Shown here: piece by piece, positions 1 to 35,540 of the stretch
Position numbering within the stretch: position 1 is the first letter of the stretch
How the letters are laid out: every line of letters starts with the position of its first letter
Source: a virus
Strand: one strand, 5' to 3'
IMG/VR virus record: IMGVR_UViG_3300020157_000001
Coordinates: 1 to 64,000 of that record
Length of the DNA: 64,000 nt
The notes under the pieces: model-generated
What the model saw: only the letters and a program-made list of their open reading frames with translations
Database searches by the model: none
What the model was told of the DNA's origin: nothing
Program-made: the position numbers and the translations under genes

Positions 1-1
1 G

Positions 2-172
2 CTCAAGTCCATGCCGGAGGGCATCACTACCGAGCAGGTAGCTGCTGCTGCTGCTCTAGCTACTGAGGCCACGATGCTTAGCATCGCCGCCGCCGCCGCC
101 GCACCTAGCACGGCAACGGCAACGGATACCGCCGAGGCATTCGCCACGGCATCGGTACTCGCCACGGTCTGA
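2..172 (+). CDS. Partial (5'-truncated) Ala/Thr-rich hypothetical protein
   Basis: Open frame from the window edge (LKSMPEGITTEQVAAAAALAT...VLATV) to TGA at 170-172; lies directly before the first palindromic element. Confidence 0.6.
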   Translation, partial: LKSMPEGITTEQVAAAAALATEATMLSIAAAAAAPSTATATDTAEAFATASVLATV

Positions 173-191
173 CCGTGGCAGGAGTTCGGCC

Positions 192-300
192 GAGCATGTC
201 AATAAAGTAACACTTTATTGACATGCTCAGTAGAGCTACTAGCGGCAACGCTAGTGGCTCTACTGAGCAACAACGCTCTAATATGCCATAAGGAGGCATA
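192..300. repeat. Double-hairpin cassette element, copy 1
   Basis: Perfect 17-bp arms 192-208/212-228 (GAGCATGTCAATAAAGT-AAC-ACTTTATTGACATGCTC). Overlapping hairpin 224-269 with GCAA loop and one G-T pair. Then CGCTCTAATA and TATGCC-ATAAGGA-GGCATA around the SD. Confidence 0.95.
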
Positions 301-645
301 GTGCATATATTCGCTACAACACAGGACGCCGCCATTGATGTCATCGGCATCATTGAGTGCCTCACGCAGGAGGCCATGCGAGCGTGCCAGACCACGTATC
401 GGGGCGAAGTGGCAGACCCCGATCTCGTCAAGGATCTGGCTGAGCGCATGGGGCGCTGGGCATTGATGTTGGCAGAGTACGCCGACGACATGCCGCACAC
501 GGATGAGCAACGTCTCATGCAGCGGCTCAAGCTTGAGCACAACAGAGGTGCTCACGGCTTGGGTTCGGATAGCTACTGGTTTGAGTCCGGTTGCCCTGAG
601 TGCCAGAACGTCAAGCAGTTCGACATTCTCCTCGCTTCGGAGTAG
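301..645 (+). CDS. Hypothetical protein with C-terminal HxxxxH...CxxC motif
   Basis: AGGAGG RBS, GTG start; C-terminal HNRGAHG...YWFESGCPECQN motif is shared with 1134..1472. Confidence 0.75.
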   Translation: MHIFATTQDAAIDVIGIIECLTQEAMRACQTTYRGEVADPDLVKDLAERMGRWALMLAEYADDMPHTDEQRLMQRLKLEHNRGAHGLGSDSYWFESGCPECQNVKQFDILLASE

Positions 646-671
646 TCCAAGCGTGGGCGGAGTTTCCGCCG

Positions 672-790
672 CTGAGCATGTCAATAAAGTATTACTTTAT
701 TGACATGCTCAGTAGAGCCACCAATAAAGTAACACTTTATTGGTGGCTCTACTGAGCATTCCGCTCTAATATGCTTAGGAGGCATACGTC
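672..790. repeat. Double-hairpin cassette element, copy 2 (variant)
   Basis: 19-bp arms 672-690/694-712 (spacer ATT); perfect 26-bp arms 705-730/734-759 (spacer AAC); SD hairpin 770-786. Confidence 0.95.
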
Positions 791-1003
791 ATGGGTTACC
801 GATCAACATGGCAAGAGGACGAGGCCGCTCGTCTGGCAGAAGCGGCAGACGTAGCCAGAGGCATCTGGCTCAATGGCTTCCCCATCGGGGACTGCCAGAC
901 CACCTCTGGCGAGGTGGAGTACCCCCACGGTCGTGGGGGCAGGGGGTACAGGGTGGTAAACACCACTCACTCCGCCCACGAATGCCGTCGGCAAGGACGG
1001 TAG
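791..1003 (+). CDS. Hypothetical protein (70 aa)
   Basis: AGGAGG RBS and ATG immediately after element copy 2; ends just before copy 3. Confidence 0.7.
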   Translation: MGYRSTWQEDEAARLAEAADVARGIWLNGFPIGDCQTTSGEVEYPHGRGGRGYRVVNTTHSAHECRRQGR

Positions 1004-1019
1004 GCGGAGTTTGCGGTAC

Positions 1020-1133
1020 CTGAGCATGTCAATAAAGTAACACTTTATTGACATGCTCAGTAGAGCTACTAGCGGCAACGCTAGTGGCTCTACTGAGCAT
1101 CAACGCTCTAATAATGCCATAAGGAGGCATATC
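1020..1133. repeat. Double-hairpin cassette element, copy 3
   Basis: 19-bp arms 1020-1038/1042-1060; hairpin 1053-1100 with GCAA loop; near-identical to copy 1. Confidence 0.95.
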
Positions 1134-1472
1134 ATGAACACCACCACCCAATCGCCACGCTGCAACGACACACCGGCGGTCGTGGAGGCCGCTCGTCGAG
1201 CAGTACGAGAGTGCCTCGCCGCCCGTGAACTCCGCAATCACTCCGACCGCCTTGCCCACGCCCACAACGAGGGGCTGCACGGCAACGACCCATCCGGCTA
1301 CTGGTCGGAGTCGGCGGCGGAGTTTGGCTGCTACCTCTGTCAGAATGCCAAGGAGGCCAAGTACATCGCTGACACCGCAGCGTGCAGCGCCAAGTACGCC
1401 GCCACCATCAAGGCCGCACGGCTGGAGTACAACGACGCTCTGCGTGCGCTGGGCTACGAGGCACTCTACTGA
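1134..1472 (+). CDS. Hypothetical protein with HxxxxH...CxxC motif (related to 301..645)
   Basis: AAGGAGG RBS, ATG at 1134; HNEGLHG...YWSES...GCYLCQN. Confidence 0.75.
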   Translation: MNTTTQSPRCNDTPAVVEAARRAVRECLAARELRNHSDRLAHAHNEGLHGNDPSGYWSESAAEFGCYLCQNAKEAKYIADTAACSAKYAATIKAARLEYNDALRALGYEALY

Positions 1473-1513
1473 TGGTGTGAATCCACGCCAGCCACCTTGG
1501 AGAAGCTGAGCCA

Positions 1514-1545
1514 TGCCCCTCTGTCCTGTAGACAGGACGGGGGCA
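1514..1545. terminator. GC-rich intergenic hairpin (possible terminator or processing site)
   Basis: TGCCCC-tc-TGTCCTGT-AG-ACAGGACG-GGGGCA; no U-tract. Confidence 0.35.
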
Positions 1546-1599
1546 AGGTCACGCCCGATAGGTGGCACCCATACCCATACAGATCATATGGGTTGGGGG

Positions 1600-1636
1600 C
1601 GACATGCCAATAAAGTAACACTTTATTGGCATGTCG
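1600..1636. promoter_or_regulatory. Single long palindrome carrying the early-gene core motif
   Basis: CGACATGCCAATAAAGT-AAC-ACTTTATTGGCATGTCG, perfect 17-bp arms with compensatory changes relative to copies 1-3. Confidence 0.9.
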
Positions 1637-1669
1637 TTCTCAACAACATACAACGCCTGAGGAGGCAAC

Positions 1670-1981
1670 ATGGAATACACAACGCACAAACTGGAGGCGT
1701 GCTCGGATTGCTACTACGCAACCGAGTACGGCACCGATGCCATTGACGACCTCACCCCTGAGCGTAAGGCTCGCATTGATGCGGGATTCGCCAAGTGGAA
1801 TGCCGATAGTGACGAGCCGGTGCTCGTTACTGGCGGAGACGAGCACGGATTCGTGTGGGCATCATGTGAAATCTGCGGAGACTTCGCAGGTATCGAGGCG
1901 TATGAGGTCATCGCAATGTACCCCAATAAAGTAACACTTTATCCAACAACAACAACAATGCCTGAGGAGGCATCACAATGA
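1670..1981 (+). CDS. Hypothetical protein with two CxxC motifs (putative Zn-binding)
   Basis: GGAGG RBS; CSDC and CEIC; ATGA overlap with the next gene. Confidence 0.75.
   Translation: MEYTTHKLEACSDCYYATEYGTDAIDDLTPERKARIDAGFAKWNADSDEPVLVTGGDEHGFVWASCEICGDFAGIEAYEVIAMYPNKVTLYPTTTTMPEEASQ
1926..1942. promoter_or_regulatory. 17-bp palindromic operator-like site
   Basis: ATAAAGTA-A-CACTTTAT followed by a CAA tract and RBS. Confidence 0.8.
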
Positions 1982-2589
1982 GAATCAATAGCTATGTCGA
2001 AGCGGTAAGCGCCCTCAAAAAGGGGCGACCGAATCAAGCCAGCCGCAAGGTTGGAAACAACACCTACCTTGAGGAGGACATCATCAGCGAGTGCATCCAT
2101 CTGCGATTGCACCGCACTCGCATCATCACTTGGTGGGCAGACGGCCATATCACCGTGCAAGGTGAGAACTGGCAGACGAACACGACCCGTGACAGGCTCA
2201 ACAGCTTCTTGCCGGTGGGCTTCTACATCAGCACACGGTTGGTGACTACATGGAAGGACAGTCAGTACAACTGGTATTCCAACCCGAGCGTCGGCCGTTA
2301 CGACCGCCGTGAGTGGATTGTCTGCAAGGTGGGCAGCGATGAGTTCGTCAGGCATTACGACCGCATGGACTTGTCCTTGTGGGACGACCTCGTTGCAGAG
2401 CAGCAGGCCACGGACGCAAGGCGGTTGCGTGCCAACGAAGTACAGCGCCCCCTTGTCATTGCTGCACGACGTGCCGCTCGTCAGGGTGAGAAGGCAGAGG
2501 CAGAGTTTGCCGAAGCGGCGCTGGATGCCATGTTCGCTGCCGATGAAGCAGCAGCCGCCGCCCGTCGTAGTGAGTGGGTATCGCAATGA
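1978..2589 (+). CDS. Phage hypothetical protein
   Basis: GAGGAGG RBS; segment LHRTRII...WQTNTTRDRLN resembles a recurrent phage early-gene family; coupled on both sides. Confidence 0.75.
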   Translation: MRINSYVEAVSALKKGRPNQASRKVGNNTYLEEDIISECIHLRLHRTRIITWWADGHITVQGENWQTNTTRDRLNSFLPVGFYISTRLVTTWKDSQYNWYSNPSVGRYDRREWIVCKVGSDEFVRHYDRMDLSLWDDLVAEQQATDARRLRANEVQRPLVIAARRAARQGEKAEAEFAEAALDAMFAADEAAAAARRSEWVSQ

Positions 2590-3011
2590 TACGCACAATC
2601 GACACCGACCTGCTCTGTAGCGTGCCGGATATCGCCGCAGACGCTGGCGTGACCTCTGCGGCCGTGAGCAACTGGCAGAGGCGCTACAGCGACTTCCCCA
2701 CGCCGGTCTACAGCAACGGCGAACGCCTCAAGGTGTGGTATTGGCCTGAGGTGACTGAGTGGTTACTGGCACGCAACGTCGATGAGGGTCGGGCTAGTAG
2801 CATGGCAGACGTTGACACCGACGTGCTGTGCGGGATACTTGACATCGCATCATTGGCAGGCGTAAATGTGAACTGCGTGTCGAACTGGGGTAAGCGTCAT
2901 GCTGACTTTCCTAGAGCGTTGACGTGCAGAGGGCGCATCGGGGGGACGTTGGTCAAGTTGTGGTACTGGTCAGAGGTATCATCGTGGCTCTATCAGAACG
3001 GGAAGATATGA
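2586..3011 (+). CDS. Tandem winged-HTH (AlpA/excisionase/MerR-like) DNA-binding protein
   Basis: Two internal copies of DTDxLC...DIAxxAGV...VSNWxxRxxDFP...KxWYWxEVxxWL. Confidence 0.8.
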   Translation: MIRTIDTDLLCSVPDIAADAGVTSAAVSNWQRRYSDFPTPVYSNGERLKVWYWPEVTEWLLARNVDEGRASSMADVDTDVLCGILDIASLAGVNVNCVSNWGKRHADFPRALTCRGRIGGTLVKLWYWSEVSSWLYQNGKI

Positions 3012-3118
3012 GAGACCCCGACCTTGACTGGATTGAGTGGGTCGAGTACCGTGACGATCTCGACCCTTACAACGATCAAGTAATACTTTATTCATCAACA
3101 AAGGAGGAAGTGCAATGA
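3008..3118 (+). CDS. Small acidic hypothetical protein (36 aa)
   Basis: ATGA overlaps at both ends. Confidence 0.5.
   Translation: MRDPDLDWIEWVEYRDDLDPYNDQVILYSSTKEEVQ
3075..3091. promoter_or_regulatory. 17-bp palindromic operator-like site
   Basis: ATCAAGTA-A-TACTTTAT upstream of an AAGGAGG RBS. Confidence 0.8.
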
Positions 3119-3375
3119 AGTGGAACCGCTACATCGAACAGTCCGGCTGGCTTCGTCGGCTCACCAACAACGGGGCGTTTGCGTACGACGAGCCAACCGT
3201 AACCATTCCACTATCGTGGTTGGGGCTGGAGGAGCATGAAGGCAATCCCTTCATGGTGAACCCTGCGCTGATCGCTGCGGATTACGTCGCCATGCAGAGT
3301 ATCAAGGAGACAATCGGTTCGGTGCATACCGAACAGCTCCGATGCTCACTAGCAATGAAAAGGGCATCAGAATGA
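3115..3375 (+). CDS. Hypothetical protein
   Basis: AAGGAGG RBS, translationally coupled. Confidence 0.7.
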   Translation: MKWNRYIEQSGWLRRLTNNGAFAYDEPTVTIPLSWLGLEEHEGNPFMVNPALIAADYVAMQSIKETIGSVHTEQLRCSLAMKRASE

Positions 3376-3668
3376 GTACACCAGCGCCATATAGAAGGTA
3401 TGAGCAGGGGTACTGCTCGTCGTGCGAAGAGTGGCTCCCTCATTGGGATATCACTTACGCAGATTGGACGGAGGACTACCCCCGTGGGACGTACCTCTGC
3501 AAGGAGCACTATGAGGAGCAGTTTCCTCACGAAGTGTGCATCGTGTGCCGTACTAAGCACGATGCCCGTGAGATGACCCCGATGGGGTTCTGGGACGATG
3601 AAGAACTGTTCTTCTGCGCCCCCTGTATCACAACATACCCAACGCCTGACAAGGAGGCATCACAATGA
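3372..3668 (+). CDS. Cys-rich double Zn-finger-like protein
   Basis: CSSC, CKEH, CIVC and CAPC pairs; ATGA overlaps. Confidence 0.7.
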   Translation: MSTPAPYRRYEQGYCSSCEEWLPHWDITYADWTEDYPRGTYLCKEHYEEQFPHEVCIVCRTKHDAREMTPMGFWDDEELFFCAPCITTYPTPDKEASQ

Positions 3669-3952
3669 CCAATGAGCAGCAGACCGCACACAATGAGTGT
3701 GACAGCGTATACAAGGTGTGGCGTGAGGCAAGCGATGAGCTGGCGGCCGCACAGTCCAGCTTCATATCAATGCGTAGCCTCATCATCAATCTCAACAGAG
3801 AGGGCGAGTGGGAGATAGCAGACGAACTGCTTGGCGCTTGCCGAATCCTCAAGGAGAAGCGTGATGAACTGCGCTTCTTCCATGACAACGTGGCACAGCC
3901 AGCAATGTCGGCATCGTTGCAGGAGTTTTCGGCGCTGGGCGGCTCACGATGA
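3665..3952 (+). CDS. Hypothetical helical protein
   Basis: AAGGAGG RBS, coupled. Confidence 0.7.
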   Translation: MTNEQQTAHNECDSVYKVWREASDELAAAQSSFISMRSLIINLNREGEWEIADELLGACRILKEKRDELRFFHDNVAQPAMSASLQEFSALGGSR

Positions 3953-4089
3953 ACCCTCTCGCAACATATACCGTCTGCATGGTGGTGTACGTCATTGTTA
4001 TGGCGGCGCTATGGGCAGAACCCAAGATCAAGAACCAATCAAGTAATACTTTATCCAACAACAACAACAAGGAGCAATACCGTGCGTAA
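3949..4089 (+). CDS. Small putative membrane protein (46 aa)
   Basis: ATGA overlap; MNPLATYTVCMVVYVIVMAALWA hydrophobic stretch; below the ORF-track cutoff. Confidence 0.45.
   Translation: MNPLATYTVCMVVYVIVMAALWAEPKIKNQSSNTLSNNNNKEQYRA
4038..4054. promoter_or_regulatory. 17-bp palindromic operator-like site
   Basis: ATCAAGTA-A-TACTTTAT followed by a CAA tract and AAGGAG. Confidence 0.8.
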
Positions 4090-4333
4090 TCCATTCAGAA
4101 AGAAGAAGCAGACAGTCGCCCTAGTGTTCCCTAGTCAGCTATGGGTAGCTGAGGACGGCTCATATGGTACGGGAGGCATCATGCTCCTACATGGTCTGAG
4201 CGCTCTCAAAGAGCATGAACAAGATGCTCTGCTGCAACTCATCTCAGAGACACAGGACAACGACCGCTACAACATGACCCAAGCAACTCTTGAGTACTGG
4301 GGCTACGACTACGCAGAGTTGGTGCGGGAATGA
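4082..4333 (+). CDS. Hypothetical protein
   Basis: AAGGAG RBS, GTG start at 4082. Confidence 0.7.
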   Translation: MRNPFRKKKQTVALVFPSQLWVAEDGSYGTGGIMLLHGLSALKEHEQDALLQLISETQDNDRYNMTQATLEYWGYDYAELVRE

Positions 4334-4464
4334 GCATCCTCATCGGCACAGTACAGAACCTGCTCACAGCAGCACACCAACACGCCGCCCCACTCATCAC
4401 CATCATCGGGGTGTTCTTGGTGTGCAGGGCAATCGCCAAGCAATACGACCGGAGGTCACAATAA
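4330..4464 (+). CDS. Small putative membrane protein (44 aa)
   Basis: ATGA and TAATG overlaps; hydrophobic segment PLITIIGVFLVCRAIA. Confidence 0.5.
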   Translation: MSILIGTVQNLLTAAHQHAAPLITIIGVFLVCRAIAKQYDRRSQ

Positions 4465-4688
4465 TGCATATCAAACTCAACGGCGACTGCTACCCCATCT
4501 TCATTGATGAGGAAGCGTGCGATGTTGTAGACCAACTCATCTTCGCAGCAGATGAGGCTGGCTACACGCCCCCAAATGACCAGCCAGTAGGAGAGTGGGC
4601 AGAGGATGCCGCACTCGTAATACTCGCCCGATATACCGCCATACCATCAAGTAATACTTTATTCGACCCAAAAGGAGCAACACAATGA
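4464..4688 (+). CDS. Hypothetical protein
   Basis: GGAGG RBS, ATG at 4464. Confidence 0.65.
   Translation: MHIKLNGDCYPIFIDEEACDVVDQLIFAADEAGYTPPNDQPVGEWAEDAALVILARYTAIPSSNTLFDPKGATQ
4646..4662. promoter_or_regulatory. 17-bp palindromic operator-like site
   Basis: ATCAAGTA-A-TACTTTAT upstream of AAGGAG. Confidence 0.8.
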
Positions 4689-5086
4689 CCATCGACTACG
4701 ACGCAATGGACAGCTACGGCAGAACCCTGCTGCGAGAAGTGGCAAACTCCGCCCGTGACTACGACAAGTGCCAAGCTGAAGCTGCTGAGTTCCAAGCAGA
4801 GCAGGATGCACTCATCATCAAGCGTGACTTGATGGTGCAGAAGCACGCTGCGGCTGACCTGCGGCTGAAGTACGCCTTTGATGCGTACAACCAGCACCTT
4901 TCCGCGATGAAGTACGCCTTTGATGCGTACAACCAGCACCTTTCCGCATGGAAGCAGGCCGACTATCTTGGTCACGACTACACCGACTGCGACCATTGCG
5001 CCAACTGTGGCGCTGAGCAGTACGAGGGCGACGACTACTACGGGGGCTGCGCCACAGGACACAATGCCAAGGAGGCAACACAATGA
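4685..5086 (+). CDS. Coiled-coil protein with Cys-rich C-terminus
   Basis: AAGGAG RBS; internal 14-aa duplication; HDY...CDHCANC...C. Confidence 0.7.
   Translation: MTIDYDAMDSYGRTLLREVANSARDYDKCQAEAAEFQAEQDALIIKRDLMVQKHAAADLRLKYAFDAYNQHLSAMKYAFDAYNQHLSAWKQADYLGHDYTDCDHCANCGAEQYEGDDYYGGCATGHNAKEATQ
4866..4947 (+). repeat. Tandem direct repeat, 42-bp period (40 nt identical)
   Basis: TGAAGTACGCCTTTGATGCGTACAACCAGCACCTTTCCGC at 4866 and 4908. Confidence 0.95.
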
Positions 5087-5475
5087 GTACAACAACCACG
5101 CCAGCTATCTGGAAGCACTACCACAACATCTTCGTCACAGCAATGGAGGGGGGCATCAACTATTGGGCTGGTGTCAACAACTACCATTGGGCTGAGGACG
5201 GGGTCGATGACCTTGAGTGGTTCTCCGCTGAGGTGTTCGATGACCTCGCAGCCGAAATGGCTGACGAGGGCGAGAAGGTCAAGGTCTACACGGTCAACCG
5301 TGCCACCATCACCAAAGGGTGGCGCTTGGCAACCACCACATTCCGTGACACGATCAGTTGGTCGTGCGGCAAGCCCCCTGTCGTCTGGAACGAAGATTAC
5401 GACTGGGACATGGATGCCAGCGATGCCGACTGCATCGTGCAGCTTGGCCTCTTCGGAGATGTGGTGTACGGATGA
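5083..5475 (+). CDS. Acidic phage hypothetical protein
   Basis: AAGGAGG RBS; TAMEGGINYWA...DADCIVQLGLFGDVVYG resembles a recurrent phage family. Confidence 0.75.
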   Translation: MSTTTTPAIWKHYHNIFVTAMEGGINYWAGVNNYHWAEDGVDDLEWFSAEVFDDLAAEMADEGEKVKVYTVNRATITKGWRLATTTFRDTISWSCGKPPVVWNEDYDWDMDASDADCIVQLGLFGDVVYG

Positions 5476-5645
5476 CCCGTGAAGAAACACTCATGGATGC
5501 CTACAAATCCGCCTTCGCCGCCGCCTACACCGCCGCAGTTGATGCCGGTTTGATTGCCCACAACGCCTACGACGCTGCTTACGCCGCCGCCCACGCCGCC
5601 CTCAAAACCGAACTAGACAGAATCAACAAGGAGTACACGAAATGA
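5472..5645 (+). CDS. Ala-rich helical microprotein (ELDRINKE family)
   Basis: ATGA overlaps; 3' end shared with ORFs at 14127 and 14344. Confidence 0.65.
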   Translation: MTREETLMDAYKSAFAAAYTAAVDAGLIAHNAYDAAYAAAHAALKTELDRINKEYTK

Positions 5646-5839
5646 CCGATCAAGAGTTTGCAGCCAAGTGCCAAGCCGACTGGAAGCGCATTGAGGTACA
5701 ACTAGCCAATGGCGTGATGCTTGCGACAGATGTCCTCAAGATTCTCCAAGAGAGCTTGGATGAAGTAGACAACGCAGACCCAGCTCTTATTAGAGAGCTA
5801 AACCGCCATTTAGTCACTAAACAAGGAGAGCAAACATGA
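5642..5839 (+). CDS. Hypothetical protein
   Basis: AAGGAG RBS, coupled. Confidence 0.65.
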   Translation: MTDQEFAAKCQADWKRIEVQLANGVMLATDVLKILQESLDEVDNADPALIRELNRHLVTKQGEQT

Positions 5840-6036
5840 GCTACGTCATCGTAGACGCAATCAAAGGGGAAATCCAGTACTGGTCAAACAGTATTGGGTG
5901 GGTCAGCATCCATGATGCAGACGTATTCTCCGACGAAGAACAACGCACACTGAACCTTCCCTACGAAGGACACTGGCTAAAACTAGTAGGAGAACAGCAA
6001 AGTAATACTTTACTCAACAACAAGGAGAGCAAGTGA
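5836..6036 (+). CDS. Hypothetical protein
   Basis: AAGGAG RBS; YWSNSIGWV motif. Confidence 0.7.
   Translation: MSYVIVDAIKGEIQYWSNSIGWVSIHDADVFSDEEQRTLNLPYEGHWLKLVGEQQSNTLLNNKESK
5997..6013. promoter_or_regulatory. 17-bp palindromic operator-like site
   Basis: GCAAAGTA-A-TACTTTAC followed by CAACAACAAGGAG. Confidence 0.75.
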
Positions 6037-6380
6037 ACATCAACGACCAACCAATCATCGTGACCAACCTCACAGAAGAGGAGGCCAGCAGCGTATACCA
6101 CTACTTCCACCGCAAGTTCGGGTGGGGAGGCTACCACTTCGACTCAAGCGACATTGCGTCAGCGTGGGAATATCAGCAAGAGGTATACAACAACGGCCTA
6201 GTTGCTGGCGGTGAAGCCCCCATTCGGGACATCACCGAAGAAGACATCGACAACATGCTCATCACTCGCGACTGGGTCAAATACCTGCCCGACGCACTTG
6301 GGTTAGAGGGAGGCCAGTTGGTGCAAGAAATGGTAGAGGGATACATCAACGAGATCACAAAGAAAGAGGCACAGCAATGA
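6033..6380 (+). CDS. Acidic hypothetical protein
   Basis: AAGGAG RBS, GTGA overlap. Confidence 0.7.
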   Translation: MNINDQPIIVTNLTEEEASSVYHYFHRKFGWGGYHFDSSDIASAWEYQQEVYNNGLVAGGEAPIRDITEEDIDNMLITRDWVKYLPDALGLEGGQLVQEMVEGYINEITKKEAQQ

Positions 6381-6619
6381 TTCATCACATCGAAGTAGTC
6401 ACGGTGGTACACCACAAGTACATCATGACGGTGGATACCGATCAGCCACTCTGCACCGTGGAGGAGATCATCAGGGGCATCAATCCACGCAATCTTCACC
6501 ACTCATACGAAATCGCCAGAGCCATTGATAATGTCGTCAGCGGTGACGGCGATCAGACGCGTGGCAAAGAATACGAAACCGAAGTCGAAGGCATCTACAT
6601 CCAAGGAGACAAGCAATGA
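6377..6619 (+). CDS. Hypothetical protein
   Basis: GAGG RBS, coupled. Confidence 0.65.
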   Translation: MIHHIEVVTVVHHKYIMTVDTDQPLCTVEEIIRGINPRNLHHSYEIARAIDNVVSGDGDQTRGKEYETEVEGIYIQGDKQ

Positions 6620-6843
6620 GAGAAGTTAGATCGACAAACAGAAAGGCAATCATGCCCCACCAATTCATGCAACTCATCGACGACTTCATGGACGAGATGC
6701 TTGAGAACTACCCACTCTCAACACTCGGCCAAGACTACGACGGGCAGCTCGTTATCTATACAGGCTTGCTTCTTGACCCAACCGACGCCGACAAGGTCAT
6801 CCCCTTCGATGAAGAGGATGACTTTCCAGAGGGGGAATCATGA
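6616..6843 (+). CDS. Acidic hypothetical protein
   Basis: AAGGAG RBS; DGQLVIYTGL motif. Confidence 0.7.
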   Translation: MREVRSTNRKAIMPHQFMQLIDDFMDEMLENYPLSTLGQDYDGQLVIYTGLLLDPTDADKVIPFDEEDDFPEGES

Positions 6844-7262
6844 CCACCACCCGACAAGCAGAGTTCATCTGCTCCCTCGTAGAGGCAAGGTATCGCACCC
6901 TAGGGTGCGATACCTTGGACGAGGCGGTAGCCAAGGTGTTAGCGCAGGCTGACCTCTTGGACACCAAGGCAGCAAGCATCCTCATCGACCGAATCAAGAG
7001 TTTGCCGCCCGACCCCGATAACGATATGCCCGCTAAGGTCGCCGCATCGGTCAAGAACGGTCGTAACAGCCGCAGCCAGCCGTGTGTTGATTGCAACACA
7101 ATCGTAAATGCCGGTGAGGGTTACTACTACCTCAACAATGGCAAATGGGATATCGTGCATAAGATCGACCAGTGTGTCGAAGCGCACCTCGCCCCCTCTC
7201 TTGAGGCTGGCTACGGCAAGGTGTGTGCTGGTAACAACGGTTGGCCGTGGGGCGCAAAGTGA
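6840..7262 (+). CDS. Hypothetical protein with CxxC...HxxxxC Zn-ribbon-like segment
   Basis: TxRQxxFIxxL...ASxLIDRI helical domain followed by CVDC...HKIDQC. Confidence 0.7.
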   Translation: MTTTRQAEFICSLVEARYRTLGCDTLDEAVAKVLAQADLLDTKAASILIDRIKSLPPDPDNDMPAKVAASVKNGRNSRSQPCVDCNTIVNAGEGYYYLNNGKWDIVHKIDQCVEAHLAPSLEAGYGKVCAGNNGWPWGAK

Positions 7263-7582
7263 CCGCATTCTCACCAACGCCAACGTCATTCATTGTCTTA
7301 GGAATAGTTGGATTCATACTATTCATAGGGGTATGGGTATTCGCATTCTCCGTGGCTAAGCACAAAGAGAATCAGATGACACCTGAAGAACTTGATGCTG
7401 CGTCACCATTAGGTATCAAACCCAGTCAAATGGTGGCAGCAGCATTCGTAGTGAGCACGATCTACTCAACTAATCAATGGTCGAAGCAAGACAAGATTCG
7501 CCATGAGAAGATGATTGCACTAAGAGAAGCACAAAGTGAACAGCAACACTCTGACCCGTTCGGGTCTAGCGGCCGCTACTAG
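7259..7582 (+). CDS. Putative membrane protein
   Basis: GTGA overlap; TM helix FIVLGIVGFILFIGVWVFAFSVA. Confidence 0.65.
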   Translation: MTAFSPTPTSFIVLGIVGFILFIGVWVFAFSVAKHKENQMTPEELDAASPLGIKPSQMVAAAFVVSTIYSTNQWSKQDKIRHEKMIALREAQSEQQHSDPFGSSGRY

Positions 7583-7584
7583 CA

Positions 7585-7601
7585 ATAAAGTAATACTTTA
7601 C
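7585..7601. promoter_or_regulatory. 17-bp palindromic operator-like site
   Basis: ATAAAGTA-A-TACTTTAC, intergenic, followed by CAACAACAAGGAG. Confidence 0.85.
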
Positions 7602-7621
7602 TCAACAACAAGGAGCATAAC

Positions 7622-9151
7622 GTGTCAGTATTAGATGACCTGTTTGCAGGTCTTACCCCAGCAACCGCTGCTACCACAACGGTTGCCACTCAACTCGCAG
7701 TGCCTAAGTTGGCACTCCCACTCAAAGACTTCCAAGAGGAAGCAGTAGAGCACGCTCTACGAGATACCGCCAACCATGGCTACGCATACCTCGCCCTAGA
7801 CATGGGGCTTGGCAAGACACCATGTGGTCTGGCTATCGCTGCTGCCTCAGTAGCCGCAGGCCAACGACCTGTGCTGGTAGTCGTGCCACCATCGCTTCGC
7901 ATCAACTGGAAGCGTGAGGCTGCTAAGTTCACGCCATGGCTGACAGTCGAAACAATCCAAGGCACTCGCCCCGAAGCTGGAGTTTCCAGCCTGCCCGATG
8001 CCGACGTGCTTATCATCGGCTCATCTTCGCTAATGCCTGCCAAAGCTACCAAGGCTGATATCGCTGCTGGTGTTAGAGCGCCTATCGGCTGGTATGACCT
8101 GATGAAGGGCAACATCAAGGGCTTCATCGTTGACGAGGCTCACTTCTTTAAGAATAAGTCGGGGCGCACTAAAGCCTTGAGGGATATCGCTTCCACGACT
8201 ACTGGTATCCGAGTGCTGATGAGCGGCACCCCCACTCCCAACGGTCGCCATGAGGAGCTTGCCAATCAGATTCATATGCTGGGGCGCAAGGCATGGAATG
8301 ACATTGGTGGCGAGGGCGTGTTCTGGACACGCTATGCGCCCCAACACTCATCTGGCTACGGTCGTACAAGTGACGAGTCTGTTGCTCTGTACGAGGCAAT
8401 GACAGCCTCTTGGTACTTCCGTCGCCTCCGTGGTGATGTCATCGAACTACCCAACAAGGGGCGCTCAATGCTTGCCATTGAGGGTCGTGGTGCGGCTGTC
8501 AGTGCATACAAGCGTGCCGAGAAAGACCTCATCTCATGGCTAAAGTCCGAGGGTAAGGATGCCCGTGGTGCTGCAAGGGCTGAGGCTCTTGTTCGTTTGA
8601 CCACTCTACGTCGCCTAGCTGGTGAGGCTAAGGTGCAGGCTGTAGTAAGCCATGTCAAAGATCTGCTTGACGAGGAATCGGGTGGGGTGTTCGTGGTAGC
8701 CGAACACCGCAATGTGATGGACGGCCTCTTGATGGGGCTGTCATCACACCACCCGACCTCAATCGAAGGTGGCATGAGTGACAAGGAGAAGCAGTGGAAC
8801 ATTGACGAGTTCACATCAGGCCGTAGCCGTGTGCTCGTTGGTCAGATCGTTGCCGCTGGCGTGGGACTCACGCTGCACGGTGATGGTAGGAACCGCCGTG
8901 AGGTTGTTGTCCAACTCCCTTGGACTCCAGCCGCCCTCATGCAAGTAGAAGATCGTCTCCACCGCATTGGCCAGACCAAGGATGTGGAGATCGAAGTGTG
9001 CCTAGCAGCAATCGAAGGCACACTCACCATAGACGAACGTCTGTGGGCAATGCTGGAAGCCAAAGCATTCAGCGCATCGTCCATCACCGATGGTGAGGGA
9101 CAGTTCCTACTAGAAGAAGTACAGGGCGAGTTACTTGACTCGTACCGCTAA
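7622..9151 (+). CDS. SNF2-family (HARP/SMARCAL1-like) helicase/ATPase
   Basis: DMGLGKT (motif I), VDEAH (II), SGTP (III), AGVGLTL (V), QVEDRLHRIGQ (VI). Confidence 0.92.
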   Translation: MSVLDDLFAGLTPATAATTTVATQLAVPKLALPLKDFQEEAVEHALRDTANHGYAYLALDMGLGKTPCGLAIAAASVAAGQRPVLVVVPPSLRINWKREAAKFTPWLTVETIQGTRPEAGVSSLPDADVLIIGSSSLMPAKATKADIAAGVRAPIGWYDLMKGNIKGFIVDEAHFFKNKSGRTKALRDIASTTTGIRVLMSGTPTPNGRHEELANQIHMLGRKAWNDIGGEGVFWTRYAPQHSSGYGRTSDESVALYEAMTASWYFRRLRGDVIELPNKGRSMLAIEGRGAAVSAYKRAEKDLISWLKSEGKDARGAARAEALVRLTTLRRLAGEAKVQAVVSHVKDLLDEESGGVFVVAEHRNVMDGLLMGLSSHHPTSIEGGMSDKEKQWNIDEFTSGRSRVLVGQIVAAGVGLTLHGDGRNRREVVVQLPWTPAALMQVEDRLHRIGQTKDVEIEVCLAAIEGTLTIDERLWAMLEAKAFSASSITDGEGQFLLEEVQGELLDSYR

Positions 9152-9154
9152 CCA

Positions 9155-9171
9155 ATAAAGTAATACTTTAC
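9155..9171. promoter_or_regulatory. 17-bp palindromic operator-like site
   Basis: ATAAAGTA-A-TACTTTAC, intergenic, followed by a CA-rich tract and AAGGAG. Confidence 0.85.
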
Positions 9172-9205
9172 TCAACAACAACCACAACCAAACAAGGAGT
9201 TCGCA

Positions 9206-9838
9206 ATGACAAGCTGGTGTATCAATAACTTAGAAGTCATATCCGATGAGGCCACTCGTAAGAGCATCCTCGCAACAGTAACAACTGTGCCGCCAACTGT
9301 TGACGGTATCAACAACGAGGGTCAGGAGGCATACATCTTTCAGAACCTGCTCCCTTGCCCAACTCGCCCAGAAGCTGATGAAATGGACGGATACTATTGG
9401 AGGATTGCCAACTGGGGAACTAAGTGGGCTGACAACAACACAGAGATCACAAGCATGTCAGACGACGACCTTCAGTTCGTCTTCAGCACAGCATGGTCGC
9501 CCCCCTGTGCAGGTATCCAGAACATCTCCAAGAACTACCCAGATGCTCACTTCATCCTGACATGGGAATCCAGCGAGGATTGCTACATGGGCGGTGCTGT
9601 CTACAAGGCTGGCGAGACTCTTCACGAAGTGACCATCGAAGGGGACGATTACCCTCAGTTCGACGGGGACTTCGCCAGTGAAGAAGACGCTGACTCGTAC
9701 CAAAAGTACGCCGACGACATGTGCGATCTTCGTGACCGCATCCAAACCGAACTGTGGGAAGTAACCCAAGACAACGACGAAGGTTGCGGTAAGTGGGGCT
9801 GCAAGGACTGCTACCCCGATGACGAGGTGACACAATGA
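9206..9838 (+). CDS. DUF1281/YubB (Api92-like) ferredoxin-like fold protein
   Basis: WCxNxL, WRIANWGTKW and FSTAWSPP signatures. Confidence 0.8.
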   Translation: MTSWCINNLEVISDEATRKSILATVTTVPPTVDGINNEGQEAYIFQNLLPCPTRPEADEMDGYYWRIANWGTKWADNNTEITSMSDDDLQFVFSTAWSPPCAGIQNISKNYPDAHFILTWESSEDCYMGGAVYKAGETLHEVTIEGDDYPQFDGDFASEEDADSYQKYADDMCDLRDRIQTELWEVTQDNDEGCGKWGCKDCYPDDEVTQ

Positions 9839-10032
9839 CCAACGTCGCTAAGCAATGGATAGTCGTGTTCGGTAGTCCCATCGACGGGCTACGTTTCCAC
9901 GGTCCTTTCGTAGACACAGCATGTGCCTGTGATTACGCAGACAACGTGCGAGATGAACACGGCGAGTTCGGGGAATACTGGATCGCCCCGATAGAAGTCC
10001 TTCCCCATACGGCATGGACGTACACCAGCTAG
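9835..10032 (+). CDS. Hypothetical protein
   Basis: GAGG RBS; GxPxDGLxFxGPF motif. Confidence 0.7.
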   Translation: MTNVAKQWIVVFGSPIDGLRFHGPFVDTACACDYADNVRDEHGEFGEYWIAPIEVLPHTAWTYTS

Positions 10033-10059
10033 TAACCGTGACATAAGTCACATATATAT

Positions 10060-10102
10060 GAGGGGGTATGGCTTGACTGTCATACCCCCTCTTTGTAATA
10101 CT
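10060..10102 (+). promoter_or_regulatory. Putative SigA-type promoter whose -35 hexamer forms the loop of a 13-bp hairpin
   Basis: GAGGGGGTATGGC-[TTGACT]-GTCATACCCCCTC, with TAATACT 17 bp after the -35. Confidence 0.5.
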
Positions 10103-10146
10103 GACCTCTCAACAAGTTCTCTACAACAACAAACAGGAGCAATACC

Positions 10147-11454
10147 ATGGCTAACGCCTCAGCCCTTCGTAAGGGTATGCAAGTAACAGTAACATCCGGT
10201 GTGTACGGTGGCCGTAAGGCAACCGTCATTGACCCAACCGTCATCCCCGACGGTGACCCAAGCGGCCTCCAGCGCCGCATCCTCATTGAGATCGAAGACA
10301 TCGGTGAGACTCACATCTTGCCCCGTCTCATCGACATCGGTGACTCCGTGGCAACTCGTCGTACCGACAAGGATATGGCTGCTCTTCGTACCGACCAGTA
10401 CGAGGAATTTGCGGGGCGCAGTGCCAACCGTGTCTTCCTTGAGAAAGCAGAAGCTATCACCGACCCAATGGACAATGCGCTGGATGTCTTCCGTCCAAGC
10501 CGTGACGTTCTCAAGCGTTTCGTTAGTCGTACGGTGGCTGGCGGTATGACTGACCTTGAGTACCTGCTCGCCATTCGTGACGACCGTAACAGCGATGGGT
10601 ACAGCCCCAACGTGGCATTCGTTGGTGAGACTCAATCAGGCAAGACCATGCTGGTGCAAGCGCTCGCTGTTCTTGCTGCCGACCGTGACGGTCTTCCCAA
10701 GCCATACCCAGTGTTCACACTCAACGGCTCGTCTGGCATCTCGTCTTACGAGTTGTATGGTCAGACCACTGCTGTAGAAGTCAACGGGGGCGAGACACTC
10801 GTATGGATGGAGGGTCTTGTGCCCATGGCACTCAAGTGCGGTGGCTTCCTCTACCTTGACGAGTTTAACGCTGTGCCACCATCACAGGCTGTCGCTATCC
10901 ACCCCATCACTGACGACCGTCGTGAGTTCACCAACTACCAGCGTGCAGTCCCCGATGGTCACAATGGGTTCCGTCCAGAGATCGTCAAGGCTCATAAGAA
11001 CTTATGGGTTCTTACCACTATCAACCCCGGTTACAAGGGGTTGCAGACGTTCTCTGAGGCATTGACCAACCGTTTCGTGTGGTTGGAGTGGGACTACGAC
11101 GAAGAGGTTGAGAAGATTCTCATCCCATCCGTCACCGTTCGTATGATCGGTGAGGCGTTGCGTACACTGCGTGCTCATCGTTCGATCACCGTGCCAGTCG
11201 GTACGTCTGCCTTGCAGAAGCTCAATAATAGCTGTGCCCGATATGGCGTGGACAACGCTGTGTGGAGCTTCACCGCTATGTTCCCACCGAACGAGCGCCC
11301 CAAGGTGACAGCTACCTTGGAAGCACGTGGCTTCCTTGACCTGCTCAAGCAAGAGTTCCCCGACGAAGATCGCATCTTTAAGGGTGCTGTTCCTACTCCG
11401 GTAGTCGAAGAAGAAGAAGCCAAGTCACAGCTTGACTGGCAACCAGCGTTCTGA
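10147..11454 (+). CDS. MoxR/CbbQ/CobS-type AAA+ ATPase with N-terminal KOW-like motif
   Basis: Walker A GETQSGKT, Walker B LYLDEFN, TINPGY, EALTNRF (Arg finger); adjacent to a vWA gene. Confidence 0.88.
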   Translation: MANASALRKGMQVTVTSGVYGGRKATVIDPTVIPDGDPSGLQRRILIEIEDIGETHILPRLIDIGDSVATRRTDKDMAALRTDQYEEFAGRSANRVFLEKAEAITDPMDNALDVFRPSRDVLKRFVSRTVAGGMTDLEYLLAIRDDRNSDGYSPNVAFVGETQSGKTMLVQALAVLAADRDGLPKPYPVFTLNGSSGISSYELYGQTTAVEVNGGETLVWMEGLVPMALKCGGFLYLDEFNAVPPSQAVAIHPITDDRREFTNYQRAVPDGHNGFRPEIVKAHKNLWVLTTINPGYKGLQTFSEALTNRFVWLEWDYDEEVEKILIPSVTVRMIGEALRTLRAHRSITVPVGTSALQKLNNSCARYGVDNAVWSFTAMFPPNERPKVTATLEARGFLDLLKQEFPDEDRIFKGAVPTPVVEEEEAKSQLDWQPAF

Positions 11455-11462
11455 CCTAGCCA

Positions 11463-11517
11463 ATGAGATGAGTGAGTCAAGTATTACTTGACTCACTCAT
11501 CTCATCAATGTTACGTT
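11463..11517. promoter_or_regulatory. 20-bp perfect inverted repeat with the core motif, overlapping a SigA-like promoter
   Basis: ATGAGATGAGTGAGTCAAGT-ATT-ACTTGACTCACTCATCTCAT; TTGACT (11488) N18 TACGTT with a TG extension. Confidence 0.8.
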
Positions 11518-11561: not shown

Positions 11562-13685
11562 ATGGCCAAGCAAGATACCAACAACAACTACAAAGCCAAG
11601 CGGGGCTTAGGAGGCGCAGTCACTCGTCAGCGCCGCCGAGCCGCAGATGGAGTTCGCGCCGACAAGGATGCGTTCTGGGCAAGCAACAGGAATGCTGCCA
11701 TTGACGAGCTAGCTCGCAATCAACGAGAGTTTGAGAACCGTGCCGAGATGCTTCGCAAGCGCTTCATCCGTGGCATCTTTAACTCCACTATCTCCAACTC
11801 AACAGCCGTGACACGTTCACGTGGCTTGACCGCAAGCGTCAGAGCACACGTGACCGAAAACTGGTACGGATTCAGCGCTTACACTGACTTCTCTTCTATC
11901 ACCATCAACTGGCCTGAGAAGATGCTCCCTAAGAGCGACACCGATCACAGCGCAGTGTTGGACTCCATTGCTCAGATTCGTGGAGTGTACTTCCACGAAG
12001 AGGGGCACATTCGCTACACGGTTCCATTCACTCAAGTGTCAAACTCAGTCTATAACTCAGCGCAACCACCCGAGTACAGTGACTATGTGCTAGTCAAGAC
12101 TTGGAACATCTTGGAAGATCAGCGCATGGAGTGTGCAGTAGTTGCAGACGTGCCCCGTATGGCTACCTACTTCACTCCAATGGCTCTCAAGATTCTCCTA
12201 CAGCGTGACACCCCCATTCCAAGCAACGATCTCCGCAGGGCATATATCTTGGTGGCCGGTCGTACCTACCTTGCCGCCAACGTCCGTCAAGAGTGTGCAA
12301 ACGGATTCGACAAGCTGTGCGATGGTTACAACGTACCGAACGGTGCTGCTACTTGGTTTGATATTGTTAGCCGGTATAAGGCAGCAGTAACCAATGCTGA
12401 TCTGTACTCCATCATTGTCGAAGCTCATAAGTTCCTCTGGAGCATCAACGACACGACAGGTGATGGGTACGGCAACGGTGACCACACTAGGCAACGTGAG
12501 AACCCCAACGCAACGCCTGACAAGGGTGCCACCCCCACTGACCCATCGGATGCTCCATCAGATACTACTGATAAGGGTGACGCAGACGATGGTGATGCCG
12601 GTAACGGTGACGCAGACGATGGTGACGCAGACGATGGTGATGCCAAGGGTGACGGTGATGCCAAGGGTGACGGTGATGGTGATGGTGATGCCAGCGACGA
12701 CAATGACTCCAGCCCCTCACCTACCAAGGATACCTACGGTGATGATTCCGGCAAGCCCGTCGAACGTCGTGACGGGGAAGAGCGTGAGGCTCCAACCTCG
12801 TTGCCAGACGGTAGTCAGTCCAACCACGGTGACGGCTCGCATGTCTTCAACAAGGATGCCATTACACAGGCTATCGAAGAAGCTATCGCTGGTGCTGACA
12901 GTGCTGCTCATAATGACACCGAGGTTCTTGACATCTTTGAGAACCTTGGCGAATACGACACGACCTCATCGCTTCCTGAGTACGACGGCTATGTAATAGA
13001 CATGACAGATGCAGAACTGAGCCATGCCAATGACATCACTGTCGGTATCCAGAACGCCCTTGAGACGTACGTGTCAGCGTCGTCACCTCAATGGAGGACT
13101 CACCAAGAGCGGGGGGCTATCCAGCCTCTCCAGTACCGTACCAAGGAGATCGGCTCGCAAGAGTTCCATCGGTACCTTGAGGGTAACGGTAACACTGGTC
13201 TGGACTTGCATGTGTCCATCTTGGCTGATGCGAGTGGCAGCATGGGGTACCACATGACCGAGCTTAGCCAGTTCATGTACGCTGCGAGAAATGCTTGCGA
13301 GTCATTAGGTATCGGTATCACTCAGTCGCTATGGTCATCCGAAGGTCAGAACTACCGCATCTGGAGTTCGGGGCCTAAGCCAGAAGTGTTCCCTGCCATG
13401 GGCGGTACAGAACCCACCATGGCGTTAGATGACCTAGCTACCCACAACCCAGAGGGTGCAAACAATCACCTTGTGTTGGTCTTCACCGATGGTGAATGGT
13501 CATATGAGTTCCCTAGCCTCGCTAGGTGGTCAGCCCCCGGTCGTAGCATCATGTTCATCCGGTACGGTGGTAACTCTGATAAGAGCATGGGCGCTGATAC
13601 TCATATCAGCATCAATAGGGTCAGTGAGCTAGGTGAGCAGTTGACCTACGGCATCAGCGACGTGCTAGCCTCGTCTAGTCACTAA
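11562..13685 (+). CDS. CobT-like protein: HEXXH metallopeptidase-like domain, acidic linker, vWA domain
   Basis: HEEGH...NILEDQRME; D/G-rich linker; MIDAS residues DASGS, GGT, FTDG; GAGGAGG RBS before ATG 11562. Confidence 0.85.
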   Translation: MAKQDTNNNYKAKRGLGGAVTRQRRRAADGVRADKDAFWASNRNAAIDELARNQREFENRAEMLRKRFIRGIFNSTISNSTAVTRSRGLTASVRAHVTENWYGFSAYTDFSSITINWPEKMLPKSDTDHSAVLDSIAQIRGVYFHEEGHIRYTVPFTQVSNSVYNSAQPPEYSDYVLVKTWNILEDQRMECAVVADVPRMATYFTPMALKILLQRDTPIPSNDLRRAYILVAGRTYLAANVRQECANGFDKLCDGYNVPNGAATWFDIVSRYKAAVTNADLYSIIVEAHKFLWSINDTTGDGYGNGDHTRQRENPNATPDKGATPTDPSDAPSDTTDKGDADDGDAGNGDADDGDADDGDAKGDGDAKGDGDGDGDASDDNDSSPSPTKDTYGDDSGKPVERRDGEEREAPTSLPDGSQSNHGDGSHVFNKDAITQAIEEAIAGADSAAHNDTEVLDIFENLGEYDTTSSLPEYDGYVIDMTDAELSHANDITVGIQNALETYVSASSPQWRTHQERGAIQPLQYRTKEIGSQEFHRYLEGNGNTGLDLHVSILADASGSMGYHMTELSQFMYAARNACESLGIGITQSLWSSEGQNYRIWSSGPKPEVFPAMGGTEPTMALDDLATHNPEGANNHLVLVFTDGEWSYEFPSLARWSAPGRSIMFIRYGGNSDKSMGADTHISINRVSELGEQLTYGISDVLASSSH
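12576..12700 (+). repeat. Degenerate GDADD/GDAK coding repeats
   Basis: GGTGACGCAGACGAT and GGTGATGCCAAG units encoding the acidic linker. Confidence 0.85.
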
Positions 13686-33905: not shown

Positions 33906-33912
33906 CTTGTGG

Positions 33913-34617: not shown

Positions 34618-34641
34618 GGTCTTCTCGTTTCTTGGAGTGTC

Positions 34642-35091
34642 TTAGGTAGTTGGGTATTGCTTGAGGTGCTGAATGAAACCAGTCCAGTCAGCGGTATTCG
34701 GTACGTCCAGTCGGAACTGATCGAACGCTTCGATCAAGTATACCACTTGATCTTGGGTGTACAATCGTCGCCCTTTGACTGGCTTACCTCCTAGGGTAGC
34801 ACCTTCGGGGGGGCGTGTCCTAATCTTAGGACGAGGCAACCACCCTTTGAGTTCCCATGATCGGATGGTCACAGGCTTTCTACCAAGGACTTTAGATACC
34901 GCCCCGATGGTGTAGCACTGTTGGGCTACTCCACCAACAGAGTACAGCTTAGAGGGAAGTTCGTTGAGAAACACAACCTTATCGTTCTTCGGAGGAAGTT
35001 CCCCACCCTTACGATTACGTGGGGTAGTACCACCGGGATAGTCTTTCGTATCCGTATCAGGGTTGTTGAACATGTCTAGTGGATCTCGCAC
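34642..35091 (-). CDS. MerR-like HTH DNA-binding protein
   Basis: YTIGAVSKVLGRKPVTIRSWELKGWLP...RRLYT; start uncertain. Confidence 0.8.
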   Translation of the reverse strand: MRDPLDMFNNPDTDTKDYPGGTTPRNRKGGELPPKNDKVVFLNELPSKLYSVGGVAQQCYTIGAVSKVLGRKPVTIRSWELKGWLPRPKIRTRPPEGATLGGKPVKGRRLYTQDQVVYLIEAFDQFRLDVPNTADWTGFIQHLKQYPTT

Positions 35092-35093
35092 GG

Positions 35094-35501: not shown

Positions 35502-35508
35502 GGACGAG

Positions 35509-35537
35509 ACCATACTCCCGCTATCGAAGAAAGTCAA
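35509..35537 (-). promoter_or_regulatory. SigA-type promoter (probably leaderless)
   Basis: TTGACT-N17-TATGGT, then 7 nt to ATG 35501. Confidence 0.7.
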
Positions 35538-35540
35538 TCA

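Follow-up and report, generated by a model that had tools for sequence, protein, structure and literature searches.

A repeated core motif and proposed PeSL-like hairpin cassettes in the small-gene arm of a metagenomic myovirus

The DNA of interest, a 64,000-nucleotide stretch (the window), comprises the first 64 kb of a single linear metagenomic contig of 91,205 bp, IMG/VR record IMGVR_UViG_3300020157_000001, with a CheckV completeness of 97%. It opens with four hairpin elements, each placed ahead of a small open reading frame (ORF). The tip of the first hairpin in these elements is a 22-bp word, CAATaAAGTAAYACTTTAyy (the core), which occurs in 13 copies, all on the + strand (0 are expected in shuffled sequence), and which heads about 12 operons of one to six genes. 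We propose, at a probability of roughly 45%, that the elements are PeSL-like composite cassettes: a phage-specific promoter/operator core would be combined with RNA hairpins that insulate, process or stabilise monocistronic early mRNAs, and the cassettes would have spread by duplication and recombination.

Copies of the core start at positions 205, 687, 727, 1035, 1613, 1929, 3078, 4041, 4649, 6000, 7588, 9158 and 11479. All lie in the first 11.5 kb (205–11491) of the 91-kb genome, the other 80 kb being free of copies, and a repeat search found the core to be the sole non-coding repeat across the whole genome. Every copy is followed, at a distance of 20–91 nt, by a start codon bearing a Shine-Dalgarno (SD) sequence. 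Because a gene that overlaps its upstream neighbour, or directly adjoins it, carries no core, the core heads operons, including those of the helicase and CobS/CobT-like genes; this supports the suggestion, made in an earlier note on the same DNA (the original prediction), that regulatory modules stand ahead of putative early microgenes. The original prediction had treated three double-hairpin copies and a single-hairpin fourth as a unit of their own. That anatomy is borne out below, but the elements are not separate: they hold the first five of the 13 cores, with copy 2 holding two (at 687 and 727).

The core has a direction. Its right arm reads ACTTTA without change in 12 of the 13 copies; the left arm varies between A and C at one position, uncompensated in three copies, and the loop reads AAY. 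Since the right arm is near-invariant while the left arm varies without compensation, the motif is asymmetric and oriented. The inner palindrome, AAGT-N3-ACTT, reaches 9 bp in five copies. An identical 23-bp core is found at two different hairpin tips (721–743 and 1607–1629).

The three double-hairpin elements (192–300, 672–790 and 1020–1133, + strand) follow the layout X-core-X'-Y-tip-Y'-X, where X is CTGAGCAT. In copy 1, hairpin 1 (192–230) consists of 17-bp arms (192–208/212–228) with the core AAGTAACACTTTA at 205–217 and the 3-nt loop AAC, while hairpin 2 (224–269) pairs 21-nt arms (224–244/249–269; 95% complementary, with one U·G) beneath a GCAA tetraloop of the GNRA type. The remainder of the copy (274–300) comprises the box CGCTCTAATA at 274–283 and an ATGCC/GGCAT hairpin (283–299) that overlaps the SD sequence, with the GTG start codon next (301). 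In copy 2, the perfect 20-bp arms of hairpin 1 (672–712; arms 672–691/693–712) can also be read as 19 bp around a 3-nt loop and carry the core variant AAGTATTACTTTA at 687–699; hairpin 2 (705–759) has 26-nt arms (705–730/734–759) that are 100% complementary, and its tip is a second core, CCAATAAAGTAACACTTTATTGG, at 721–743. The box and SD hairpin follow at 762–790 (CGCTCTAATA at 762–771), directly before the ATG at 791. Copy 3 repeats the arrangement with a 19-bp perfect hairpin 1 (1020–1060; arms 1020–1038/1042–1060; core 1035–1047), hairpin 2 (1053–1100; arms 1053–1074/1079–1100), and the box and SD hairpin at 1104–1133 (CGCTCTAATA at 1104–1113; ATG at 1134). In copies 1 and 3, hairpin 2 has 21–22 pairs, of which one is a T·G (U·G in RNA); copy 2 has C-G at that place, and all 26 of its pairs are perfect. 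Copy 4 is a single + strand hairpin (1592–1644; arms 1592–1616/1620–1644) around a core at 1613–1625, and stands before the ORF at 1670–1981; its inner 17 bp are perfect, and three G·U (G·T) pairs stretch the arms to 25.

A single ORF lies between successive copies (301–645, 791–1003 and 1134–1472). The TTGACA noted earlier forms part of hairpin 1's right arm, and the symmetry of the hairpin repeats it on the opposite strand. The GGAGTT boxes were also found, and an alignment of copies 1–3 shows the CGCTCTAATA box, and then a 5–6-bp hairpin overlapping the SD sequence, in three of three double-hairpin copies. The SD-occluding hairpin of the original prediction is therefore present, but it is not specific to the element, because the same GCC...GGAGGC hairpin recurs at other genes of the phage (repeat families D9 and D17).

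When folded as RNA, copies 1–4 give z-scores of −10.3, −11.3, −9.0 and −11.1, with 0 of 200 dinucleotide shuffles folding as well; the four elements exist as first described. Hairpins 1 and 2 have an ATGCTC(AG) segment in common (a 6-nt overlap), and had been claimed to compete for it. When the shared AUGCUC is forced to pair left or right, the predicted energy differs by only 0.8–2.1 kcal/mol. Given this small difference between the two folds, the competition, in which full pairing of one hairpin excludes that of the other, is real in silico. RNA begun just past the core is predicted to fold into a 5'-terminal stem of 21–26 bp.

A stable stem-loop is found at or next to the core in six of the 13 copies (z −9 to −15), and the other seven are without one. 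The six long copies have long perfect arms, of four unrelated sequences, built around the same centre; the centre is AT-rich and the arms are GC-rich, and five of the six lie within the first 1.6 kb. In the seven short copies the palindrome spans 4–7 bp and the DNA folds at −0.6 to −3.7 kcal/mol, with the copy at 4041 doing no better than its shuffles. Three of these (3078, 4041 and 4649) form only four contiguous pairs, have no significant fold, and contain an uncompensated mismatch. A 3-nt loop is present in 13 of 13 copies, and a stem of 5–9 bp in most. The 9-bp core helix shows weak covariation: four of its pairs never change, three change on both sides, and 22 of 500 shuffles score as well. 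Because seven copies have no stable hairpin, we read the shared function from sequence, not structure. The long stems are read as RNA structures laid over a DNA-level signal, because the GCAA tetraloop, the U·G pair and the three G·U pairs fall on the + strand.

The short copies, again on the + strand, stand at 1925–1943 (stem of just 7 bp; a CAA-rich leader and the SD sequence of gene 1978–2589 come next), 3074–3092 (before gene 3115), 4037–4055 (4-bp stem only and no stable hairpin, before gene 4082), 4645–4663 (before gene 4685), 5996–6014 (before gene 6033), 7584–7602 (before the SNF2 helicase gene, 7622–9151) and 9154–9172 (before gene 9206–9838). In the thirteenth copy (11460–11502, + strand), the variant core AAGTATTACTTGA tips a perfect palindrome with 20-bp arms that are unrelated to those of the other copies. 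A (CAA)8 leader and then the vWA/CobT-like gene (11562–13685) follow it, and an AAA_5 (CobS-like) gene lies on its other side.

The original prediction could not assign the element to any named class. By analogy of logic and layout, the best match is the PeSLs of T4-type phages: cassettes of ~100 bp running from stop to start codon, in which a stem-loop overlaps an early promoter, and which flank ORFans and recombine (Arbiol et al. 2010, PMC2839356; Comeau et al. 2014, PMC4122927). The elements share several features with PeSLs: (i) the stem-loop overlaps or abuts the putative promoter element, and an SD sequence lies at the 3' end, (ii) the genes flanked are small ORFans in what appears to be a plastic, putatively early region of a myovirus, and (iii) repeat length suffices for homologous recombination, and the microgenes are duplicated and modular. 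They also differ. The sigma70 −35/−10 pair and the AT-rich UP element that define the PeSL promoter are absent, a 22-bp phage-specific palindromic word being present instead; there are two abutting hairpins with a shared segment rather than one G/C-rich stem; there is no T-run, making a terminator function doubtful; the core also heads ordinary multi-gene operons; and the lineage is BRock/GiJojo-like, not T4-like, with no recombination products observed here.

We envisage the cassettes working as follows. The core would be a phage-specific promoter, and maybe also an operator, marking ~12 transcription-unit heads. Host RNA polymerase would recognise it in double-stranded form, under the direction or gating of a phage factor, for which the tandem helix-turn-helix (HTH) protein encoded at 2574–3011 is one candidate. 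In the first four units and at the thirteenth copy, palindromic arms have been built around and behind the core, and would act in RNA. Transcripts reading through from upstream would fold both hairpin 1 and hairpin 2, giving perfect helices of 17–26 bp that could insulate each microgene and would suit either processing by RNase III or the blocking of 3' exonucleases; for the long stems, cleavage of the RNase III type deserves serious consideration. RNA initiated at the core would begin at the foot of hairpin 2, with a GNRA-capped 5'-terminal stem stabilising the mRNA, then an unstructured CA-rich leader, and then the SD sequence. With the X-core-X'-Y-tip-Y'-X layout, read-through and newly initiated RNA would fold differently.

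The evolutionary part of the proposal draws on the copies and the genes behind them. Copies of the element are 92–99% identical in sequence. In particular, copies 1 and 3 (192–283 versus 1022–1113) are 99% identical across 92 nt, and this identity is bounded by the stop and start codons: the genes behind, ORF1 (301–645, + strand, 114 aa) and ORF3 (1134–1472, + strand, 112 aa), are diverged paralogues with 33% identity (E 4e-8). ORF2 (791–1003, + strand) encodes 70 aa, and none of the three products belongs to a Pfam family. The N-terminal half of ORF1 resembles ORF2, the two having a CQTTxxGEV motif in common (hhalign E 0.01, a weak match), and its C-terminal half resembles ORF3; homologues of the N-terminal half only, of 76–82 aa, occur in related contigs (P0127 and P0128). 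This pattern fits the duplication of element-plus-gene units, with the elements homogenised or strongly selected and the units recombining. Near-identical copies of ~100 bp would have arisen through such duplication, and homologous recombination or gene conversion (by the phage RecA) would keep them alike while also reshuffling the microgenes; recombination between copies is a live option. As a separate observation, residues 27–61 of ORF2 are matched six times over by repeats within P0130, a protein of 4191 aa (E 2.5e-16), and again by repeats of other giant proteins; ORF2 may be a free-standing copy of a giant-protein repeat unit.

Several points weigh against the proposal. The chief weakness of reading the core as a promoter is that no polymerase or sigma factor to read it was found in the phage. 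The core also has no acceptable −10/−35 pair: a consensus scan of the arm gave four sigma70-like matches (versus 6.7 in shuffles), none of them at operon heads or cores; no −10 was found at 16–18 bp from the TTGACA of hairpin 1; and no −35 conservation was seen upstream of the core. If the arm is truly immediate-early, initiation at the core would be needed before any phage protein is made. In addition, hairpins 1 and 2 are missing the T-run of the phage's evident terminators, which elsewhere are G-rich, T-tailed stems (at 10060, 16890, 17440 and the contig end), and for this reason the "terminator" half of the PeSL analogy is doubtful. About 3% of the genome, upstream of position 1, may be missing. 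Lastly, since distant relatives (helicase 47–56% identical) and the cultured phage GiJojo are without the motif, comparative support is absent.

The searches for a reader of the core covered several classes of enzyme. A six-frame Pfam search with PF00940 for a T7/N4-type polymerase was negative in the 91-kb record and in five relatives (the positive control, the T7 genome, gave E 1e-109), and tblastn with the T7 RNA polymerase found no match in the phage genome. The DxDGD motif of two-barrel polymerases is absent from the phage, as are sigma70 region 2 and region 4 domains. The early ORFs belong to no Pfam family; among them is the tandem double-HTH protein (2574–3011, + strand), a single chain of two ~65-aa repeats with weak HTH Pfam hits only, which may bind the palindromic core. 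Other candidates were tried and set aside: a 707-aa protein, considered as a hidden polymerase, has a vWA MIDAS motif and is CobT-like; a Frpo-like single-stranded DNA promoter, or a cruciform giving a TTGACA-TAATAT pair at 17-bp spacing, fails on geometry (the hexamers are separated by 55 nt, or by 9 nt once extrusion is complete); and, judged by eye, likeness to ECF, sigma28, NtcA, IHF or DnaA-box sites fits all copies in no case.

Canonical promoters do occur elsewhere in the genome, where they are intergenic and face genes: TTGACA-17-TACAAT at 89740 (+ strand) and TTGACA-18-TATAGT at 74173 (− strand). The first, which is near-consensus, is the only canonical promoter aimed at the small-gene arm. 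Downstream of it (genome 89740–91035) come roughly 170 nt of untranslated leader, then a small ORF, an endolysin-like gene, and a strong terminator at the contig end.

Searches for the element outside its own genome extended to cultured phages, metagenomes and RNA families. Positions 1–6000 had no blastn match among cultured phages. An exact motif scan of IMG/VR returned 38 single chance matches in AT-rich contigs, with a second copy in none. The original prediction had allowed for a match to a known Rfam family; only generic hairpin (miRNA-model) matches were seen, at 24–33 bits against thresholds of 51–102. It had also proposed asking, with a covariance model, whether the element persists in relatives. 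A model of the 13 cores recovered the training copies only in 440 kb (the phage's own 91 kb plus 19 related loci), leaving no copy outside its own genome. Neither the core nor a repeated hairpin family was found in the helicase relatives from IMG/VR (47–51% identity), in one metagenome contig (56%), or in GiJojo. A GTDB genome scan yielded distant archaeal SNF2 genes only, and a search of IMG/VR with ORF3 gave no match. A helicase homologue, P0002, encoded on a 67.6-kb contig, is 86% identical; the metagenome scan by helicase alignment keyed on generic helicase words and did not take in the JGI contigs at 65% identity.

Judged by capsid protein (55% identity), GiJojo is the closest relative in culture, and it has a microgene arm of its own at 32600–43162 (− strand). 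Most of its microgenes are preceded by a spacer of ~70–290 nt, and many of these spacers contain a hairpin and/or a TTGACA-type box. The layout of this arm is PeSL-like, with promoters of host type and spacers that are not identical. Other palindromic words are seen at the heads of small-gene arms in distant relatives: a TGTGACA/TGTCACA cluster (L047:2020–2090) and, ahead of a CA-rich leader, AATAGGCAAATGCCTATT (L063:2050–2068).

How else might the core and its hairpins be explained? One alternative is that the core is an operator only, that is, the site of a phage DNA-binding protein (the tandem-HTH protein or another small HTH protein) that blocks or shuts off transcription initiated upstream. 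We consider this unlikely, although it retains real weight. Repeated sites of this sort are known in actinophages (the stoperators of cluster A mycobacteriophages and the conserved inverted repeats of phiC31), and Aca-controlled anti-defence operons offer a further analogue. The inner palindrome AAGT-N3-ACTT has the usual shape of a dimer site, an HTH gene lies within the same arm, the core is without promoter hexamers, and, as in actinophages, many short intergenic sites are co-oriented with transcription. A precedent is Gp36 of the lytic actinophage D29, a small MerR-like HTH repressor that acts on repeated sites (PMC12266134). However, the 12 units over 11.5 kb would still need a promoter, and none is visible; the sole canonical + strand promoter (89740) runs into the strong terminator at the contig end. 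The motif is asymmetric, strictly co-oriented with genes, and placed at operon heads directly before leaders, and arms of 17–26 bp far exceed any protein site. Also unlike the actinophage operators, the sites here are at the operon heads of one arm only and inside long RNA-type hairpins, with no repressor or integrase evident.

A rather unlikely explanation is that the element acts purely at the RNA level. Here the arm would be transcribed as one or a few long transcripts, and core plus hairpins would be processing sites at which RNase III/E releases monocistronic mRNAs (as happens between the early genes of T7), sites of translational regulators, or put-like two-hairpin antiterminator RNAs. 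In its favour, the long stems are perfect helices of 17–26 bp whose GNRA loop and G·U pairs exist on the + strand alone, and an abutting hairpin pair resembles the R-sites of T7 and the put sites of HK022. As with T7 RNase III sites and 5' stabiliser stem-loops, long helices lie between early genes, with a stem at the predicted 5' end of the mRNA. CA-rich spacers are also found between core-less genes and in relatives. The T7 processing hairpins, however, are imperfect helices interrupted by internal loops, and no promoter-like word lies at their centre. Moreover, seven of the 13 hairpins are negligible and left-arm changes go uncompensated, yet the arms and loop are conserved in sequence; start-codon distances of 20–91 nt are unlike those of a translational operator; and no Rfam family reaches its threshold.

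It is quite unlikely, in our estimation, that the core represents a new class of promoter, read by a factor or polymerase unlike sigma70, T7/N4 or two-barrel enzymes, which might enter the cell along with the DNA. In that case the long AT-centred palindromes of the leading end would be switches sensitive to supercoiling or transcription, choosing between read-through and fresh initiation for the earliest genes.

The original prediction had compared the element to the hairpin promoters of phage N4. In this version, leading-end palindromes would extrude under supercoiling as hairpins or cruciforms, to be read by an injected or otherwise unrecognised polymerase. There are genuine likenesses: a short stem with a 3-nt loop (in all 13 copies, with 5–9-bp stems in most), a conserved sequence, a concentration of copies towards the genome's leading end, a centre of symmetry kept across four different arm sequences, and stems whose non-conserved positions stay paired in the long copies. 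The AT-rich centre and GC-rich arms of the six long copies, five of them in the first 1.6 kb, would favour extrusion. But the promoters of the N4 virion RNA polymerase (vRNAP) have a GC-rich heptamer centred at −11 and specific G/A (purine) loop bases, whereas the core here, AAGTAAYACTT, is AT-rich and has different loop bases (PMC4496689). There are 13 copies over 11.5 kb here versus three in N4. Seven of the 13 have no stable hairpin, and several cannot form a 5-bp stem, three of them having 4-bp stems plus an uncompensated mismatch. The phage is a myovirus without a vRNAP or T7-like polymerase gene, as the six-frame Pfam, tblastn and DxDGD searches indicate, and its only giant virion protein is a LamG-rich fibre. 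The G·U pairs, finally, argue for folding of RNA, not DNA. Overall, the N4-type comparison is not supported, and we regard a promoter of this kind as very unlikely.

Cassette shuffling at recombination sites was another mechanism put forward earlier, and in a site-specific or mobile form it would make the elements attC-like integron sites, or insertions akin to miniature inverted-repeat transposable elements (MITEs) or Correia elements, carrying single-gene cassettes. One element does alternate with one small gene, the microgenes are modular, and an identical 23-bp core tips two different hairpins (721–743 and 1607–1629). Nevertheless, no tyrosine or serine recombinase is encoded: both integrase/resolvase families, PF00589 and PF00239, are absent from the phage genome. 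The copies are 92–99% identical in sequence, while attC sites conserve structure only, and the same core heads multi-gene operons that include the helicase and CobS/CobT-like genes. On reading the sequence, though not by systematic search, we noted neither a GTTRRRY core at the element borders nor terminal inverted repeats with target duplications. A mobile element of this type is most improbable. We give almost no credence to an assembly artefact, in which the assembler would have created or mis-ordered the repeats: the record is a single metagenomic contig, and the 92-nt stretch that copies 1 and 3 share at 99% is long enough to mislead a short-read assembler, but each copy has unique flanks and intact ORFs, the hairpin tip of copy 2 differs, and thirteen copies over 11 kb cannot all be artefactual. 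In addition, orthologues of ORF1 and ORF3 (64–94% identity) occur on independent public contigs, those of ORF3 reaching 75–91% in public metagenomes, and from this we take the locus to be real and to have close relatives.

We prefer PeSL-like cassettes to these alternatives. If the core is a promoter, the phage would possess a 12-unit regulon controlled by a signal beyond the rules of host sigma70 or of any recognisable phage polymerase or sigma factor, which would point to an unknown means of redirecting actinobacterial-type transcription. The cassettes would carry the PeSL idea—near-identical repeats that insulate genes while permitting duplication and recombination—to a lineage far from T4 and with a core that is not of host type. 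The 22-bp core plus 5' stem-loop could serve as a compact, portable expression module, and the microgenes behind the strongest copies would be prime candidates for host-takeover or anti-defence functions.

The phage itself has a myovirus gene set (tail sheath at 61607–63175, baseplate wedge, portal, major capsid protein and large terminase) and replication genes of its own (PolA, DnaB, primase and RecA). Its + strand gene arm runs from 1 to about 17.4 kb, and its − strand genes from 17.6 to 89.7 kb. The + strand arm, putatively the early region, contains small ORFans, the SNF2 helicase, the AAA_5 ATPase, and the vWA/CobT-like protein with its DASGS MIDAS motif. The capsid protein is 55–56% identical, and PolA 31% identical, to those of the Streptomyces myoviruses GiJojo, BRock and pSt2308, to which the phage is, by these comparisons, distantly related. 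This likeness, together with strong AGGAGG ribosome sites, suggests a host of actinobacterial type. As neither an integrase nor a resolvase is encoded, the phage is probably lytic.

Some further features were seen in the genome. Within ORF 4685–5086 lies an in-frame 42-bp tandem duplication (4866–4949; 95% identical), and at 79.4–80.1 kb of the genome (L061:15400–16100) a 66-bp coding tandem repeat, of at least seven units, is found in a 574-aa protein of unknown family. A 340-aa protein (40954–41976) shows a sub-threshold C-terminal match to the Acb2/Tad1 hairpin domain (E 1.5e-4). At the right contig end (L062:6990–7130), three GTATCAA/TTGATAC words and the palindrome GGTATCAATATACC flank the terminal terminator; these may form a packaging or operator site.

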